A stretch of 63,056 nucleotides of DNA, counting the filler, from Collodictyon triciliatum (Eukaryota), in the NCBI GenBank assembly GCA_043381765.1. It is 12 parts of 12 records of this genome, joined end to end, with 100 filler letters (N's around TTAATTAATTAA, not from the genome) between each part and the next. Parts side by side here need not be neighbours in the genome. Positions count along the whole stretch, not along the records: positions 16,703 to 22,161 come from JBHJMP010005176.1; 11 more parts are not named here. One strand, given 5' to 3'. Positions within the stretch are counted from its first letter, which is position 1. Each line of letters starts with the position of its first letter. This document shows, piece by piece, positions 16,703 through 25,543 of this stretch. Below the pieces are notes generated by a model. That model did not search any database, was not told the DNA's origin, and saw only the letters and a list, made by a program, of their open reading frames with translations. A program made the translations under genes and the position numbers.

Positions 16703-16826
16703 AAAGGAAAAGGAAAAGGAAAAGGAAAAGGAAAAGGAAAAGGAAAAGGAAAAGGAAAAGGAAAAGGAAAAGGAAAAGGAAAAGGAAAAGGAAAAGGAAA
16801 CGGAAAAGGAAAAAGGAAAAAGAAAA
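16703..16826. repeat. (GGAAAA)n microsatellite, host-intron type, at the left end of the virus-containing contig
   Basis: Hexamer array of the same type as the host repeat at ~6105-6150. Confidence 0.9.
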
Positions 16827-16862
16827 GATGGAAACGGAGATGGAAAGAAAAAAGGGACTTAC

Positions 16863-16901
16863 CAAAGCAACCTTACTGGAAGGCACTTTATGGGTGGCCA
16901 T
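16863..16901 (-). CDS. Possible first coding exon of a host gene (MATHKVPSSKVAL|intron)
   Basis: An ATG at 16901 is followed by a canonical G|GTAAGT donor at 16862 that runs into a pyrimidine-rich microsatellite intron. GC-rich sequence lies upstream. Confidence 0.35.
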
Positions 16902-17479
16902 GGGGCAGTATCCTATGCGGGGCAGAGGAAGCGTTGTTGTTGGCTGCAGAGCAGAAACCAGAGTCCGTGCGGGTCAAGCAGAGGCTGATTTGTGGATGGG
17001 AGTGATCAGTCGGATGGGGAGGCAGAGGGCGCAAGAAAACAGCGCGTGGAAGGAGGCCCCGCAGGGCTGCGGATCGCGTGGGGCAGCGGCGAGAGAGGCC
17101 GCTCTGTGCACTCAGCCTGCTTCTCGAGTCAGGTTTGTTCGGGCGGCACCGCGCGCCGCGGGGGACTCGGTCTATTTGCCATTGGTGACCGTCTTGCGGC
17201 GCACGGCGCTTCCTCTTTCTGCCGGGCTGGCCATATCCCTTTGGGTGCTTCACAAGCGCTGCCGTTGCGCGCACATTCCCGTGGCCGTTCCCCACCAACA
17301 CCCCACTCTGCCAAGGGGACGGCAATATCTAAGGCCCCCGGCTCGAGCCGCTACAATTAGCAGCTAGTTTAGTGCTTTCCCTAAGCGTCGCTAACCCCTT
17401 GCAAGAGACCAATAAGGAAAAAAATACCGTATATCCAGCCGAATCCGGTCAAATTGCCGGTGCGCACGCGGCCACACCT

Positions 17480-17841
17480 TGGGTATTATAATTTTGCTCC
17501 GCGGCCGTTCTGGTCGTGTTCTGTAACTTATATAGAAAATAGGGATTTTGGGACATTTTCAATCAAAACTATATAAAAATGATTCAATATGGACGAGACA
17601 CTCTGGGTTTTATAATTTTGCTCCGCGGCCGTTCTGGTCGTGTTCTGTAACTTATATAGAAAATAGGAATTTTGGGATATTTTCAATCAAAACTATATAA
17701 AAATGATTCAATATGGACGAGACACTCTGGGTTTTATAATTTTGCTCCGCGGCCGTTCTGGTCGTGTTCTGTATCTTATATAGAAAATAGGAATTTTGGG
17801 ATATTTTCAATAAAAACTCCATAAAAATGATTCAATATGGA
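17480..17841. repeat. 124-bp tandem repeat, ~2.9 near-identical copies
   Basis: TTATAATTTTGCTCCGCGGCCGTTCTGGTCGTGTTCTGTA begins at 17486, 17610 and 17734. Copies differ by only a few substitutions. Confidence 0.95.
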
Positions 17842-17854
17842 TGTATTCCATTAA

Positions 17855-18082
17855 ATGGTTAAAATCTATTTGTGGAATTCTTTGTCATTGTGGCTCGAAT
17901 TTTTTTCCTTTATTCGATATTGTAGCTCGAATTATAATTATGCAAATCTTATTTTCGCCAACTACACTACACATCGAGGCTACATCTCATTTTCTTGGTC
18001 TCTCAAACACGCTGCAGTTACACAATTACTAACAGCATATCGAAAGCAGGTGAATATTTCTGGACCACAAAGGTATACCTAG
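17855..18082 (+). CDS. Possible small viral ORF (75 aa)
   Basis: An ATG-started ORF convergent with 18238..18663, with a strong hairpin between the two stops. No homology recognised. Confidence 0.3.
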   Translation: MVKIYLWNSLSLWLEFFSFIRYCSSNYNYANLIFANYTTHRGYISFSWSLKHAAVTQLLTAYRKQVNISGPQRYT

Positions 18083-18113
18083 TATTTCCATAATTTTATC
18101 TAAAATTAATAAA

Positions 18114-18156
18114 TGTCGTATTATCACCTCTATATTATATAGGTGATAATACGACA
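18114..18156. terminator. Perfect 16-bp inverted repeat (stem extends to 19/20 bp with a 3-nt loop) between convergent ORFs
   Basis: TGTCGTATTATCACCT (18114-18129) is the exact reverse complement of AGGTGATAATACGACA (18141-18156). Terminator function is inferred. Confidence 0.6.
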
Positions 18157-18237
18157 GCCAGCCCCCAACCCTGCGTTTTTCAACCCTTTATATACTGTTC
18201 TTTCCCGCTTATTCATACTATATATGGAAGTGTGGTT

Positions 18238-18663
18238 TTATTCAGCGTGTAAGTCACGCATTATCATCACGAGACGAATCAACAGCATCTTGGTTAACTT
18301 GTACATCTCGCGCTTCTGTGCTTGTGTAACTTCCGGCGGCACATTCAAGCATCCCCAAGCAGCACGTCTAGTAGCATTCATTAATTCATTTAGTTGTCCT
18401 TGAGTAATATCATCGCCTGGACCAGTGCCATTGAAATGCACGTGAACCCTGATGACATCTTCCATTCTTGTCCTCCACACTGCTCGGGTCCTGCCATCCC
18501 CCACTGACAGCGTTGCATAGTCGTCCCACTTAATTGTATAGCTACCATCAGCGCCTAGTAACACAATCTCGTAATCATTCGTGCCAGTATTGTGCACAGT
18601 GTCCATAAACTTATAATTGTCTCCGTCAATGAAACGAATGTAAAAGTTTCCTTCTGGTGCCAT
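18238..18663 (-). CDS. Viral hypothetical protein (141 aa)
   Basis: Intronless ATG-started ORF with globular-protein composition inside the PLV region. Confidence 0.7.
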   Translation of the reverse strand: MAPEGNFYIRFIDGDNYKFMDTVHNTGTNDYEIVLLGADGSYTIKWDDYATLSVGDGRTRAVWRTRMEDVIRVHVHFNGTGPGDDITQGQLNELMNATRRAAWGCLNVPPEVTQAQKREMYKLTKMLLIRLVMIMRDLHAE

Positions 18664-18715
18664 TGTTGCTTCGCTCTCTAAGAATTTAATAGTTAGTAAT
18701 TATCTAGCTAATGTT

Positions 18716-18748
18716 TTGATTTGTAGTATAACAAATACAACAAATCAA
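18716..18748. terminator. Hairpin, 13/14-bp stem with 5-nt loop, just downstream of the 49-aa ORF stop
   Basis: TTGATTTGTAGTAT (18716-18729) pairs with ATACAACAAATCAA (18735-18748) with one mismatch. Function is inferred. Confidence 0.5.
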
Positions 18749-18756
18749 TTTTATAC

Positions 18757-18906
18757 CTACGGATGTAATAAATCTTTTTCACTTTTAAATTCAACACTAC
18801 CCCCGCAACAACTTGACCGCTTCAAATGATCGACTGTGTATTTCCAGACTCTCTCAACAACTAAAACACAAGTCATCAACAAAGATATAATAGTAATTGG
18901 TTCCAT
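18757..18906 (-). CDS. Small viral membrane protein (49 aa), below the ORF-track cutoff
   Basis: Translates as MEPITIISLLMTCVLVVERVWKYTVDHLKRSSCCGGSVEFKSEKDLLHP*: an N-terminal hydrophobic helix followed by a basic KRSSCCG motif. It has a TCT motif upstream and a hairpin after the stop. Confidence 0.6.
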   Translation of the reverse strand: MEPITIISLLMTCVLVVERVWKYTVDHLKRSSCCGGSVEFKSEKDLLHP

Positions 18907-19056
18907 ACATACATTGAGAAATTATTATAGCTTTTTACATAAATAAATTACATAAGCCAACACCTGACGCAATACAGAAATAAATCGTAAAGCAAAAAGC
19001 CAACATAGACACATCATAAAACACCCACATTTTCCTTTCATAACTTAGTCAATAAT

Positions 19057-20637
19057 TTATTCCACACGGAAAGTTTGCTGGTTCGACTGAATCTCTAGGA
19101 CGGCATCGTACAAACTAGCCACCACCATCGTATAGGCAACATCATCCGGACCATCGCCCTCCCATTCTAAACGCAATGTCATCAATCCTGAGCCGGAAGA
19201 CTGAATATCCACTCCAACGATCTCCGACTCGACTGCATCGAGTACCTTTCTTAAATTAAAACCTAAAACAAACTCCGTGCACGGCGAACCTCCAGCCTCT
19301 GCGGCAAACCTAACAGCTTGGGCTAGAGTTGTTGGATCTGTAGCACCGTCCTGCTGTTTAATACTAGCATAATTAGCACCGTACGCTAAACCCCCATTGC
19401 CTGTGTAAGGCGCAGATACTGCCACGCCATTTTCATTTAGTAATGCAGCCGGAGAACCAGCCGCAAAACCACCAGGATCTGCTGCAGCTCCTAACAGATT
19501 CTGTGTCGTTTGTCTATGAGGCGTGTGATACCGAGATCCATGAAACCCAAAAGGTCCAGTGTATTCAGAACGCACAAAGGTCAAGCCCAACGCTTTCTGT
19601 AGCTCTAAGAACGCCTGGCAAGCATTACCCTTAGTCGACATACTCTGAAGGGGATAATAAAATGAGCCAAGCTGAAGCTGAGCACTAATAAGATTTGGCG
19701 GCTTGTGCTTTCTGTCTTTTCCCGCTATTGTGATTTTATTCTGTTCGTCCTGGCGAAAGAAAGCAACAAAGACAGCATTCAAAGATTTCACTGTGTCATT
19801 GATATTGAACGTGTGCATCGTGGTCGGGGTTCCAGGAATCGAGAACAATGATGTGCGCCAAGTCTTATATGGAATCTGAAGCGGTACTCCTCGTGAAATA
19901 CTAGACTGAAGCTGAGCGTGATATTCAGGCGCCATCCGAACCAAGTCATAGCTCAAGAAACACTTTGTTAATTTGTAACTTACGTTAGCTGGAGCAGATC
20001 CCGCTGTTGCTACTGCGTCAGTTCGGTTTACCTGAATACACTCGGGACTTGGTGCAAGCTCGATTTGAAATTGGAACGCTGAGACACTATCAATCAATGA
20101 AGTCGAAATCAGTCCCGAGTAATTCGATATACCTGAAAGTCTAAACGGTATACAGTAATTCTTCGCAGAGGTACTAACAATACCACTAGCCGGAGCAGTC
20201 ACTGACTGAACTCTGTTATAGTAATTGTCAATTCCCATCATCGCCGCACCCACACATTTGTTGTAGTCGTCTGAAATATAGTTCATAAAAATAGAGTCCA
20301 AAAAATTATACCGCTGTATGTCTTCCAAGAGAAACGACGTCCCCTTTCTTATCTGTAGAGTTTGGATAATTGATTCTATTGAATTCAAAAACGTAACATT
20401 ATATACACCACCATTAGCAGCATCTAGAAGTGTAATTTCTGCGTCAAAGTGCAACATAAGCGTATCAAGGTCTATTTCCATACCTGTCTCACTCGGTATG
20501 TTAAACATTATTCTATCCACATTTCTTGGACCAAAATCTGCTCCGTTAAATGGTGATATTCTCGTAGTGTGGCGAGCTAAAACTTTGTCATTGTAGTTTC
20601 TGATTTTCATATACTTGGCTTCGCTAGGGTACTCCAT
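19057..20637 (-). CDS. Major capsid protein, Polinton-like virus type (double jelly-roll), 526 aa, intact
   Basis: The motif order matches PLV MCPs as I recall them: RISPFNGADF-GP...IMFNIP...IDLDTLMLHF; LLEDIQRYNFL; YCIPF; YKLTKCFLSYDLV; KSLNAVFVAF; QLQLGSFYYP; AFLELQKALG; FVLGFNL; LYDAVLEI. The sequence is beta-rich, intronless and free of stops. Confidence 0.85.
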   Translation of the reverse strand: MEYPSEAKYMKIRNYNDKVLARHTTRISPFNGADFGPRNVDRIMFNIPSETGMEIDLDTLMLHFDAEITLLDAANGGVYNVTFLNSIESIIQTLQIRKGTSFLLEDIQRYNFLDSIFMNYISDDYNKCVGAAMMGIDNYYNRVQSVTAPASGIVSTSAKNYCIPFRLSGISNYSGLISTSLIDSVSAFQFQIELAPSPECIQVNRTDAVATAGSAPANVSYKLTKCFLSYDLVRMAPEYHAQLQSSISRGVPLQIPYKTWRTSLFSIPGTPTTMHTFNINDTVKSLNAVFVAFFRQDEQNKITIAGKDRKHKPPNLISAQLQLGSFYYPLQSMSTKGNACQAFLELQKALGLTFVRSEYTGPFGFHGSRYHTPHRQTTQNLLGAAADPGGFAAGSPAALLNENGVAVSAPYTGNGGLAYGANYASIKQQDGATDPTTLAQAVRFAAEAGGSPCTEFVLGFNLRKVLDAVESEIVGVDIQSSGSGLMTLRLEWEGDGPDDVAYTMVVASLYDAVLEIQSNQQTFRVE

Positions 20638-20647
20638 AACATTACCT

Positions 20648-20651
20648 TAGA
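20648..20651 (-). promoter_or_regulatory. Candidate late-promoter motif TCTA at -14..-11 of the MCP start codon
   Basis: The minus strand reads AAATTAATTTCTAAGGTAATGTT-ATG. Similar TCT motifs lie at -13..-11 of the ATGs at 18906 and 21175. Confidence 0.45.
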
Positions 20652-20815
20652 AATTAATTTCAAATCAAACGCGTTCACCTGGACACCTGGACACCCCCTT
20701 TTCAAACTTTTTAAAATTCTGGACCTTCGGCCTTTTTCAAAAAAAAAAGGGGAAGGTCGGTATGAATTATTATTTTTAGAGGGTGTTCTAGTAAGGGTGT
20801 CCTAGGAGGTGTCCT

Positions 20816-21175
20816 TTATCTAAACCTGAGTTCCCTACCGTGAGTTGTTAATGCATAAGCCTGCCCTAAATCATGGATGCCGGAACCCAGTGATTTGGTG
20901 TTTATCTTTTTCAGGTCCATTTCTCCTAAAGTACTCAAACCCCGTCCCAAGTAATTAGCTGCTTTGATGCTAGAGACCAAAGGGTTGGTAAATGTTTGGA
21001 TGGCTGGCTTTACTCCACTTGTTGTAAGTAGATTATCAACCAACCCCATACTCGCATCGTCTAGTCTGTTATATGCGTCGTTAAGTCCCTCCAATCTTTG
21101 AATAGCTCTGTTAGTTGATGTGGTAAGAAATCTACCTACTCCTCGTGCTCCTCGTTGTGCGTAATTAACAATCAT
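20816..21175 (-). CDS. Viral hypothetical protein (119 aa), Gly/Ala/Leu/Arg-rich and likely helical; candidate virion core or membrane-active protein
   Basis: Intronless ORF directly upstream of and co-oriented with the MCP. Function is inferred from composition only. Confidence 0.7.
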   Translation of the reverse strand: MIVNYAQRGARGVGRFLTTSTNRAIQRLEGLNDAYNRLDDASMGLVDNLLTTSGVKPAIQTFTNPLVSSIKAANYLGRGLSTLGEMDLKKINTKSLGSGIHDLGQAYALTTHGRELRFR

Positions 21176-21195
21176 ACATTTCCCAAGATAAAAAT

Positions 21196-22161
21196 ATGAG
21201 CTTGTTTATGGGATCTAAAGAATTCAATCAGAAACTATTTGAAGAAAATATAAAAAACATCAGAGCGTATGAATTAGAAGCTGAGCAAATACCCAAAGTA
21301 ATGAAAGAGTTGTATATCACAATATTTCCTAAAGGAAAATCAAAATCTATCGAAGCAGCACTTATGATGCGAATTGCTAGTTTGCAATACCCCCACAAAA
21401 ATCCTAGTAAGTCGTATAAACTTGCAGCAGATGCTTTTATGGCATCGAGATCATCTAGTGAATTTTTTAGATTGTATGCAGATGGTCCTGCTCCAGGTGT
21501 TCCAGTTACCACAGATAACTTTATAAGAGCATTGGCAAATTTATTAACAACACAAGGAAAAATTTATAAAGAGGATACTGTAGAAAAATACAATCCTCAA
21601 TCACGTTTAAAGTTACAGCGTGATGATGATACTGAAGACGTTGATCTTATTACTCCTGCTCCATCAAAAGCATCTTCTCGTGCAAGTAATATTAGTACTA
21701 GGACAGAAATAGCAGAATATGATAAAGCAAAGTCTTCAGAAGGTTTATATGTAGATCCTACTGAGGGACTTGATGATCCCGAGTCAGATGACGAAGCCCA
21801 ATCAGATGGCGAAACAGGTCAGATCAATGAATTTAAAGAAATAGACCCAGACCAATTAGATGCAGACCAAGAAGCAAAAGAAAAAGGTTATCAATCCGCC
21901 GAGTCGGGCTCACCAGAAGGCTCACCAGACAAATTATTAAATGTATCAGATGTATCAGCAGTCAGTGTTGAGGAACCAAAAGCGGCAGAAGAAGAAGAAG
22001 AAGACGATGAAAATACAGTTACATTAGACCCTGACCAAATCAATCTTCGTTATGGTCTGCTTCGAAATACTATTTCAACCAGCACCAAAGAAATTTTTGT
22101 TTTGGGTTACTTACAAAAACGCAAAAACCTTGTACCAGTTCCTACACATATTCACTTACTT
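21196..22161 (+). CDS. Viral hypothetical protein (at least 322 aa, 3'-truncated) with a long acidic disordered region
   Basis: Intronless ORF divergent from 21175 with only 20 bp between the start codons. It has an Asp/Glu-rich segment and runs into the contig end. Confidence 0.75.
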
Positions 22162-24308: not shown

Positions 24309-25543
24309 TTAGTTGAGGATCCATTGTATGGACATCTTGTCAGTTCCTTTTGCTATCTGTTGCACATGAAAAATAGGTTAAACGCCTGAGCGATGTAGGA
24401 AAGCAAGAGAAATGTGACTGAAGTTTGGAAAGAACAAATATGAAAAAAAAATCTTGAAAATGCTTATAACAAAGGCAAGGACACCCATATGCGCACCCAC
24501 CCAGTAAAAACGACACGAAATAGATAGCAACACAGATCCCAAAGTGGTTATCAGTTTGTCTAGATGAAAGCACAAATATATAACCTGGGAAGCCTGGTGC
24601 GGGCGGCCGATTGGACACGAGACGAAGGATGCTACCGGAGGATTTTCTGTGGTGGGCCTACATGCCAGTTGTTGCAGAGTCACTGCAGACTGGAGCATCG
24701 CGTCATCTGTCTCGGGACCAGAGCCAGGCGAGCGACGAGGCAGGTGAGCTGATGAGGCTGAGGCTGAGGCCGAAGGTGATAATGTGTGACATTGCGTGTG
24801 TGCGCTTCGAGATTTGTATGGATTGACAAGCCCAACTGAGTCACATGAGGTGGGGTGGACACGCAAATCCGCCTCTTGTCTGTGTGTGAGAATAGCTGGC
24901 CTAGTAGACAAGCTAGGTGCGAGTGTTTCGTCACAATACCTCCACCTTGCCTGCCTCAGATACTTGCAACGGTATCGACACTGTTGCCCGGTTCGCCCTG
25001 GGATATGTCTTGCTATCTGTCCCAAATATTATCATCTTACCATCGCTGTATGTATGGTCGATTACACGAATAAACCACTGCGGTGTGAATAGGATGGTAG
25101 GTGTGTAGTTTGGGGAAAAGAGTCGGACGATTGGACCAGAGATAGAGCACCAAAACATGTGAAGCGAGTGTTACCTTGCGCCATTGTCCTTGTGGGTAGA
25201 GCATCATTGTATCTCTTAATAAGATATCTTCGGCTGGTGACCATTCTGCATGATTTATTCGTGGGCTCAAAACCCTGTTCCAACGCTGGCAGCATTGGTC
25301 TGCAGTGCGGATACCCTGCATCAAGTCCGAAACCGCGCGCCAGTTCTTTGCTAACCCTTGTTCCTTGATCTTTTTTACACAGCGATTAAAGAAAGAAAGA
25401 ACTTGCGTCAGTCGAAAGCCGTAGTAACCTGTGGGCCATTCTAATAGAGTTATCTTTACCTTTTGCAACTGTGCGTCCTCTTCCACCGTCCAGTGGTGTG
25501 TCCGGTATTCTGCGCTTTTCACCTGGCCAGCTTTCTTGTCCAT
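24309..25543 (-). CDS. Two-repeat Myb/SANT transcription factor, 4 exons
   Basis: Exons ~25543-25460, 25369-25175, 25016-24585 and 24356-24309 (all GT-AG, phase 0) give WTVEEDAQL..NWRAVS..RTADQCCQRWNRVL.P.I...WSPAEDILL..WRK|IARHIPGRTGQQCRYR and a C-terminus KMSIQWILN*. Confidence 0.85.

Follow-up and report, generated by a model that had tools for sequence, protein, structure and literature searches.

A capsid module on an unplaced contig of Collodictyon triciliatum

The window analysed here is a 63,056-nt stretch of the Collodictyon triciliatum assembly GCA_043381765.1, and the element in question, part of a small virus that can fairly be labelled polinton-like or virophage-like, is carried by one unplaced contig within it (16703–22161; 5,459 nt). 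Three hairpins, HP1 (18114–18156), HP2 (18716–18748) and HP3 (20722–20758), all considered on the minus strand, each occupy one of the three long gaps between the viral genes of this contig, and we give about an even chance to their being gene-end signals of the giant-virus type. The window as a whole contains 11 pairs of 44-N runs around TTAATTAATTAA, spaced 5,554–5,569 nt apart with one pair at 4,647 nt, and is a pseudo-molecule of strung-together unplaced contigs of ∼5.5 kb each. The contig with the three hairpins and the viral genes stands between two such N44-TTAATTAATTAA-N44 spacers, which recur about every 5.56 kb; neighbouring contigs are unrelated, and context across a spacer therefore carries no meaning.

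Viral-looking genes start at 18238 and extend rightwards, the capsid module being ordered as a 119-aa gene, the capsid gene, a small membrane-type gene and a 141-aa gene. Of this small virus the capsid module alone is visible, and polinton-like or virophage-like is the finest label that we can give it. The view is limited to 5.5 kb, and the other four open reading frames (ORFs) have no family match.

The capsid gene (19057–20637, minus strand) encodes a protein of 526 aa with 40 metagenome homologues, which range from 98% to 24% identity on contigs of up to 16,905–17,215 nt. An AlphaFold model based on 38 aligned sequences (mean predicted local distance difference test score 78.8) was matched by Foldseek to the capsid proteins of a grouper iridovirus (E = 2.7e-17), Sputnik (1.6e-14), PBCV-1 (2.4e-13) and mavirus (8.9e-12), and many viral capsid models in BFVD match it as well. 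Judged by this predicted fold, the 526-aa protein is a double-jelly-roll major capsid protein. It has no Pfam or PHROG match, the profile of its family has no sequence match in the PDB, the Sputnik and mavirus capsids included, and nothing in a phage collection matches it. No relative was retrieved when IMG/VR was scanned with the capsid protein and its alignment, or with the 141-aa ORF and an ORF of 322 aa, and nothing useful came from Pfam or PHROGs for any of the five ORFs.

Relatives were obtained from one metagenome scan with the capsid alignment, which yielded 11 loci (L001–L011) from freshwater metagenomes, mostly of 1–6 kb. They draw attention to a 49-aa ORF beside the capsid gene (18757–18906, minus strand), which has a hydrophobic N-terminus and an SSCCGG motif and was found by tblastn in eight of these loci, at 61–96% identity in L001, L002, L004 and L006 and, on the opposite strand, at 46–58% identity in L007, L009, L010 and L011. 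A small protein of 47–54 aa (69 aa as called in L010) with an SSCCGG or SSCCGS motif thus stands beside the capsid gene in nine lineages, with its orientation reversed between two clades. It is in tandem with the capsid gene in the window, L001 (1649–1807), L002 (1525–1671), L004 (5395–5550) and L006 (5623–5766), and convergent with it in L007 (1367–1531), L009 (477–638), L010 (204–413) and L011 (153–314). On the strength of this conservation, we regard the 49-aa ORF as a genuine conserved gene and a companion of the capsid gene, newly recognised in the present analysis.

Three hairpins behind stop codons

HP1 has perfect 16-bp arms, with three more pairs possible within its 11-nt loop, and lies 81 nt past the stop codon of the 141-aa ORF (18238–18663, minus strand). 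HP2 consists of 13 pairs with one U-U mismatch and a 5-nt loop, and is found 8 nt past the stop of the 49-aa ORF, with the start codon of the 141-aa ORF 52 nt beyond it. HP3 is composed of 7+7/8 pairs (14–15 bp) around an internal loop, with a stem that is partly an A-run paired with a T-run, and is located 57 nt past the stop of the 119-aa ORF (20816–21175, minus strand) and 84 nt before the capsid ATG. All three are where the first-pass annotation of this DNA had placed them, with the geometry it gave and each behind a stop codon. Its further claim that HP1 sits between convergent ORFs did not hold, the ORF on the left (75 aa, 17855–18082) having no homologue or other support. A hairpin stands behind three of the five visible gene ends in the window; the capsid gene, which has none immediately past its own stop, and a doubtful 38-aa ORF are without one. 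HP2 and HP3 are unchanged in independent metagenome contigs from a public DNA run (X1), and these contigs reach the centre of HP1.

Each hairpin was compared with 200 dinucleotide shuffles and, in a second test, with 300 dinucleotide shuffles of the whole intergenic region that contains it. As minus-strand RNA, HP1 folds at -24.0 kcal/mol (z = -5.65), HP2 at -12.2 kcal/mol (z = -3.24) and HP3 at -17.5 kcal/mol (z = -5.10), with 0/200 shuffles equal in every case. Among the whole-intergenic shuffles, HP1 was equalled in 0/300 by energy and 0/300 by stem length, and HP2 in 5/300 and 1/300, respectively. HP3 is marginal by this test: 13/300 shuffles equalled its energy and 202/300 its Watson-Crick stem length. 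A sliding energy scan placed many coding windows at -11 to -21 kcal/mol, so HP2 is not singled out by its folding energy; GC-richer coding windows fold equally well, and what makes HP2 special is therefore its being a palindrome. Palindromes of at least 12 bp number four in the 63-kb window, namely HP1, HP2 and two A/T-run artefacts.

Palindromes recur behind the small gene in related loci

Within 100 nt of the small-gene stop, a palindrome is present in all five tandem lineages, with p values of 0.001 in the window, 0.036 in L001, 0.034 in L002, 0.003 in L004 and 0.001 in L006 (Fisher combined p = 8.6e-8), while control windows inside capsid genes reach p ≤ 0.05 in 2/77 cases. Enrichment over shuffled sequence was found for HP1, HP2 and the small-gene ends of relatives. 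Relative to where the small-gene stop codon ends, the tandem-type palindromes begin at -3 to +46 nt, and the five are mutually unalignable while the small ORF aligns well. Such structure without sequence conservation at orthologous gene ends holds for the HP2 position only.

In the convergent clade (L007, L009, L010 and L011), a palindrome fills the 33-nt gap between the small-gene and capsid stops. It is a perfect 11-bp palindrome, or 13 bp with one mismatch in L011, and is invariant in 4/4 loci with variable flanks. No promoter is needed in a gap between two stops, and the palindrome therefore supports a gene-end role. Further palindromes lie on or just past a stop in L004 (88–122, p = 0.001), L006 (6044–6075, p = 0.011) and L010 (1455–1482, p = 0.016), and between convergent genes in L006 (2208–2242, p = 0.004). 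Among intergenic regions of at least 30 nt, 5/18 reach p ≤ 0.05; all five are behind a stop, and none of the five regions called divergent is among them, two gaps so called actually containing a homologue of the 119-aa gene. Across 35.4 kb, 13 of the 18 palindromes of at least 11 bp start between -8 and +60 nt from a stop. The remaining five are divided between other non-coding sequence (three, including HP1 at 81 nt) and loosely called coding sequence, which holds just two although sequence called coding makes up 91% of the total.

The other two hairpins are not conserved in the metagenome loci. The 141-aa ORF, which follows the small ORF also in relatives and has no Pfam or PHROG match, is 68% identical to a 142-aa ORF of L001 and 27% identical to its counterpart in L002; there is no hairpin past the L001 homologue, where a 44-nt gap is followed by another gene, and none past that of L002. 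The 119-aa ORF, conserved directly upstream of the capsid gene (tblastn identity 58% in L005, 45% in L004 and 29% in L003), is separated from it by 21–48 nt in L005, L006 and L008, compared with a 178-nt gap holding HP3 in the window. Given this short gap in relatives, the HP3-bearing gap is specific to the close kin of the window.

The loci also allow us to judge whether the hairpins, and HP3 above all, are functionless by-products of AT-rich, low-complexity DNA. The HP3 counts given above speak for such an origin, as do shuffles of the loci with 0–15% GC, which yield mean stems of 8.5–10.7 bp. Scoring for bacterial-type intrinsic terminators, a class that we rejected, found three sites (shuffle mean 4.7) with none of the three hairpins among them. 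These points are met by the rarity of HP1 and HP2 among shuffles by stem length (0/300 and 1/300), by significance at 5/5 orthologous positions, by the near-silent coding controls and by the convergent-clade palindrome, invariant in every locus despite differing flanks. For HP1 and HP2 a by-product origin is already largely refuted, and for the hairpins taken together we hold it to be improbable.

A promoter-like motif precedes many start codons

An AT-rich TTCT(A/C) word lies ∼14 nt before many start codons, both in the window (18645–18690, 18907–18925 and 20638–20661) and in the upstream regions of L001–L011. TTCT peaks at -14/-15 from the start codon, and TCTA is found between -35 and -5 in 12/44 genes, a set that includes some doubtful ORFs; shuffles average 4.7 such genes, and 0/500 of them reached the observed count. 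In the window, all on the minus strand, a promoter-like AT-rich TTCTA motif lies 14–15 nt before the capsid ATG (20645–20655), a TTTCTC motif before the 49-aa ORF (18916–18921) and a TTCTTAG motif before the 141-aa ORF (18678–18684). The octamer AAAATTGA has a single copy in the viral part (18745–18752, minus strand), where it overlaps the first 4 nt of the 5′ arm of HP2.

TCTA in AT-rich flanks has been described as the late promoter of Cafeteria roenbergensis virus (CroV) and as the promoter of mavirus (PMC8547959; PMC13196603), and a TCTA late motif has also been reported in ChlorV (PMC13196603); here and below, statements cited in this way refer to the portions of the texts that were available. 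As in these viruses, a core motif is placed near the start codon in many genes, and unlike their TCTA core the motif here is often TTCTC or TTCTT. The TCTA/TTCT motif supports transcription of the giant-virus type. The spacing of the genes points the same way: the small gene starts 17–18 nt past the capsid stop in L001, L002, L004 and L006 (150 nt in the window), and genes 17 nt apart, each with a motif of its own, seem to us better suited to transcription in a viral factory than to nuclear units.

These data bear on the possibility that the hairpins are 3′-end or stability elements used without any giant virus, by the host nuclear machinery or by the element itself, in which case the virus would be autonomous. 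A position behind stop codons says nothing about which polymerase is at work, no giant-virus sequence or helper is in view, and the capsid region occurs in RNA-library contigs from environmental samples whose infection state is not given. However, gaps of 17–21 nt between genes, together with a motif ∼14 nt ahead of each ATG, fit viral-factory promoters better than transcription by nuclear RNA polymerase II, the motif matches a published giant-virus late promoter core, and hairpin mRNA ends have so far been described for cytoplasmic giant viruses and their parasites. We therefore consider an autonomous virus unlikely, though a shade more probable than a by-product origin of the hairpins.

Contigs from public runs and the segment around HP3

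In public sequencing data, four DNA runs of one study contain a 0.62–0.65 share of the sampled words of the stretch, and other aquatic metagenomes and four metatranscriptome runs contain smaller shares; the small shares in runs X5–X19 say nothing about habitat. One DNA run (X1) and three RNA-library runs were compared with the window as assembled contigs, not as reads. RNA libraries may contain DNA, and contigs show neither levels nor strands. X1 carries the capsid module at about 99% identity, and a 2,587-nt contig (record 1) spans exactly 18136–20727, one end falling at the HP1 centre and the other within HP3. The RNA-library contigs extend over portions of the 141-aa ORF, of the capsid end and small ORF, of the 119-aa ORF and of the rightmost ORF.

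HP3 is flanked on the left by a pair of GGACACC repeats (20681–20696, plus strand, with copies at 20681 and 20689) and on the right by a set of three GGACACC-like repeats that is inverted relative to the left pair (20782–20815, minus strand). The 171-nt region of repeats and hairpin folds at -52 kcal/mol (z = -3.24). A 71-nt segment between the repeats (20697–20767) is inverted relative to its flanks in contigs from two studies (X10 record 11 and X8 record 16), the flanks being 98.6–99.5% identical to the window. In X10 record 11, identity falls across this segment from 98.6% (4 differences in 294 nt of the 119-aa gene) to 82% (41 in 231 nt of the 5′ part of the capsid gene). Two contigs of X1 (records 2 and 5) match 20676–20727 and 20750–20802 only, and then diverge from the window. 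The HP3 segment has the look of a small element that can be inverted or exchanged and that lies at a recombination breakpoint.

It is therefore worth asking whether the palindromes act on DNA, as recombination or inversion junctions or as protein-binding sites that bound exchangeable modules, with HP3 mobile or invertible and HP1 a boundary. In support of this are the inverted segment with its drop in identity, the restricted matches of the two X1 contigs, the X1 contig with one end at the HP1 centre and the other within HP3, the two GGACACC copies set against two to three inverted copies around HP3, and the relatives that have a mere 21–48 nt at this place, so that the HP3 segment looks inserted. 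Yet the HP2-type hairpin has no flanking repeats and lies tight on stops in many lineages, which recombination junctions need not do; the rearrangements were seen in contigs, not in reads, and the ends of de Bruijn contigs are weak evidence. A role on DNA and a role at gene ends are not mutually exclusive. The palindromes may also be joints for swapping or flipping gene modules, with the HP3 segment, immediately upstream of the capsid promoter, a small invertible or mobile element and the capsid cassette bounded by HP1 and HP3; in that case, the HP3 segment would stand in both orientations in near-identical viruses and would mark the breakpoint between one conserved module and a divergent one that holds the capsid gene. 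We find this, as well as a purely DNA-level role, doubtful, but the least so among the alternatives to a gene-end signal of the giant-virus type.

Searched as an exact 15-mer, the left repeat was found in 72 IMG/VR contigs, all of them unrelated to the virus. In one of these (L013, 1936–2260), the same 7-mer stands twice in direct orientation and, beyond an AT-rich spacer, twice inverted, upstream of a gene that may be primase-like to judge by its motifs. We set this iteron-like origin layout aside as an analogy, since it was found by an exact-word search.

Remaining features of the contig and window

The window carries ∼133 extra nt between the capsid stop and the small gene (18907–19056), absent from relatives, which hold the 38-aa ORF (18925–19041, minus strand), a putative and doubtful ORF whose coding status is unsupported. 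At the right end of the contig, diverging from the capsid module, an ORF with an acidic tail (21196–22161, plus strand; 322 aa visible) runs off the contig and has a weak PHROG match (E = 0.0047).

Over its left 0.7 kb, the contig is made up of GC-rich DNA with an (AAAGG)n run. About three copies of a ∼124-nt tandem repeat (17474–17841; 96% and 92.5% identity between copies) separate the GC-rich DNA from HP1 and may be a terminal repeat region of the element. Features of a host junction were sought on this single contig: the GC-rich/(AAAGG)n DNA followed by the repeat would be one candidate end, and neither a second end nor a target-site duplication was found. Other data do not confirm a host/virus join here, and no X1 metagenome contig covers 16703–18135; missing contig cover in public runs is not evidence of absence and permits no inference on integration or expression level. 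Within the GC-rich left part, 124 nt (16863–16986) match metatranscriptome contigs from two studies at 100%, with differing flanks and no Rfam match; at E ≤ 1, the contig as a whole is likewise without an Rfam hit. On another contig of the window, an ORF at 25037–25543 encodes a Myb-type DNA-binding domain (Pfam E = 3.9e-12) and is presumably a gene of the cell's own genome.

Discussion

The position of the palindromes behind stop codons, their excess over shuffled sequence and their structure without sequence conservation together support a gene-end role. The strength of this conclusion differs among the three hairpins. A gene-end role is likely for HP2, placed where the capsid and small-ORF unit ends, and for its counterparts across the family. 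HP1 is a strong lineage-specific palindrome behind the last gene before the non-coding repeats, for which such a role is plausible. For HP3, which may serve the 119-aa gene, it is doubtful or composite.

If the hairpins are gene-end signals of the giant-virus type, a possibility on which we remain evenly divided, each transcription unit would begin at the AT-rich TTCT(A/C) motif ∼14 nt before the ATG and end with the help of another virus. The capsid message would read through the small ORF, and the nascent RNA would fold into the palindrome behind the stop codon, to be recognised as under the 'hairpin rule' of giant viruses. An RNase III-type enzyme would then cleave the hairpin and a viral poly(A) polymerase would tail the RNA. 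Both enzymes would come from a co-infecting giant virus, and its late transcription machinery would serve the TCTA-type promoters as well. The 'hairpin rule' of Mimiviridae reportedly goes back to Byrne et al. 2009.

Several observations weigh against this model. The loci compared are few, short and related to one another, and their ORFs were defined simply by length. Neither HP1 nor HP3 is conserved across the 11 metagenome loci, and HP3 is marginal by the whole-intergenic test. Significance is reached in only 5/13 regions behind stops, which is far from a 'stringent rule', and two AT-rich palindromes lie in gaps called divergent (L008 364–398 and L010 1896–1933). Taken alone, the convergent-clade palindrome has p ∼0.09 in L007, L009 and L010, which are very AT-rich, and 0.012 in L011. 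The mimivirid early motif AAAATTGA is found between -35 and -5 in 0/44 genes, and neither a helper virus nor an RNase III or poly(A) polymerase can be seen. No loose end of the contigs is an A-run, and no A-run or transcript end was seen at any hairpin. Instead, contigs from X9 and X10 (one study) end at 18802 and 18801, inside the 49-aa ORF and 53 nt before HP2; the letters joined directly to these ends are ones that we take to be Illumina adapter, and no A-run is present there. This recurrent fragment end is a weak hint that does not fit the hairpin model, coming from contigs of 95.6%-identical relatives in which DNA carry-over is possible.

In Mimiviridae, messages end and are polyadenylated at hairpin palindromes whose sequence is not conserved, through the action of RNase III and a viral poly(A) polymerase (PMC4402537), and the hairpin signal is listed as a marker of the family (PMC6163669). 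Our palindromes resemble this signal in being hairpins past stop codons, set in AT-rich intergenic DNA without sequence conservation, where one palindrome can lie between convergent genes. They differ from it in being present at some gene ends only and in their carrier, a fragment of a virus of the ∼17-kb class in which neither RNase III nor poly(A) polymerase is visible. Hairpin-associated mRNA ends are also known from Marseilleviridae (PMC5413956), Pithovirus (PMC4402537) and Bodo saltans virus (PMC5871332), all of them large viruses that encode their own RNase III, and no single helper is therefore indicated. The enrichment of inter-ORF palindromes tied to an upstream stop was the argument made for Marseilleviridae (PMC5413956), and it is of the type that we have reused here.

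Virophages and transpovirons carry the terminator hairpin and late promoter of their giant virus (PMC7031253; PMC11998528). The premise of the first-pass annotation that such hairpins are shared between giant viruses and their parasites has accordingly been published, the 'terminator hairpin and late promoter' being named together in the available text of PMC7031253. The element described here resembles the mimicry of Sputnik and Zamilon in placing a terminator-type hairpin and a late-type giant-virus promoter on one small element, while its own dependence on a helper is something that we infer. Unlike in Sputnik and Zamilon with their mimiviruses, the promoter core is TCTA-like rather than a mimivirus motif, and the capsid shares with those of Sputnik and mavirus the fold only (10–12% identity). 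PgVV-14T, a virophage of the polinton-like type, carries an early AAAATTGA motif (bioRxiv 10.1101/2022.07.28.501842), unlike the present element, in which that motif is not at gene starts. PgVV-14T and the Tetraselmis polinton-like viruses are otherwise similar to it as small double-jelly-roll viruses for which dependence on a giant virus and a part in inducible defence have been proposed. No paper on gene-end hairpins in polinton-like viruses was found in a search whose scope lay outside the main review (PMC11426020) and Byrne et al. 2009, and the word 'hairpin' has 0 occurrences in the available portions of PMC7805220, PMC8547959, PMC13196603, bioRxiv 10.1101/2022.07.28.501842 and bioRxiv 10.1101/2025.10.09.676808.

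The proposal that the hairpins are giant-virus-like terminators thus stands in part: they are non-random, lie behind stops and recur in relatives, while conservation of HP1 and HP3 and poly(A) at the hairpins were not seen. Transcription by a co-infecting giant virus, the second step of that proposal, is favoured by the TCTA promoter-like motif; the hairpins do not identify a helper, and AAAATTGA does not precede the genes. That the element depends on a giant virus is a reasonable inference, which draws more support from the TCTA motif than from the hairpins. The last step made the element a dormant parasite and an inducible antiviral defence. This idea is not new, reactivation of integrated virophages and polinton-like viruses by giant viruses having been published as a defence for mavirus and for Tetraselmis polinton-like viruses (bioRxiv 10.1101/2025.10.09.676808; PMC8547959). 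The dormant or integrated status of the present element is unproven and rests on one unplaced contig, the left part of which was not seen in the virus-bearing metagenome.

Should the palindromes be true message ends, a freshwater clade of small capsid-bearing viruses would share both ends of its transcription units with giant viruses, namely a TCTA late promoter and a terminator hairpin, and a virophage-like lifestyle would be predicted for the clade. The search for its helper would also be narrowed, as CroV and ChlorV are the only viruses to which the available part of PMC13196603 ascribes a TCTA late motif. Together, the promoter and the gene-end palindrome would then provide a sequence-only marker with which uncultured polinton-like viruses could be sorted into helper-dependent and autonomous ones.

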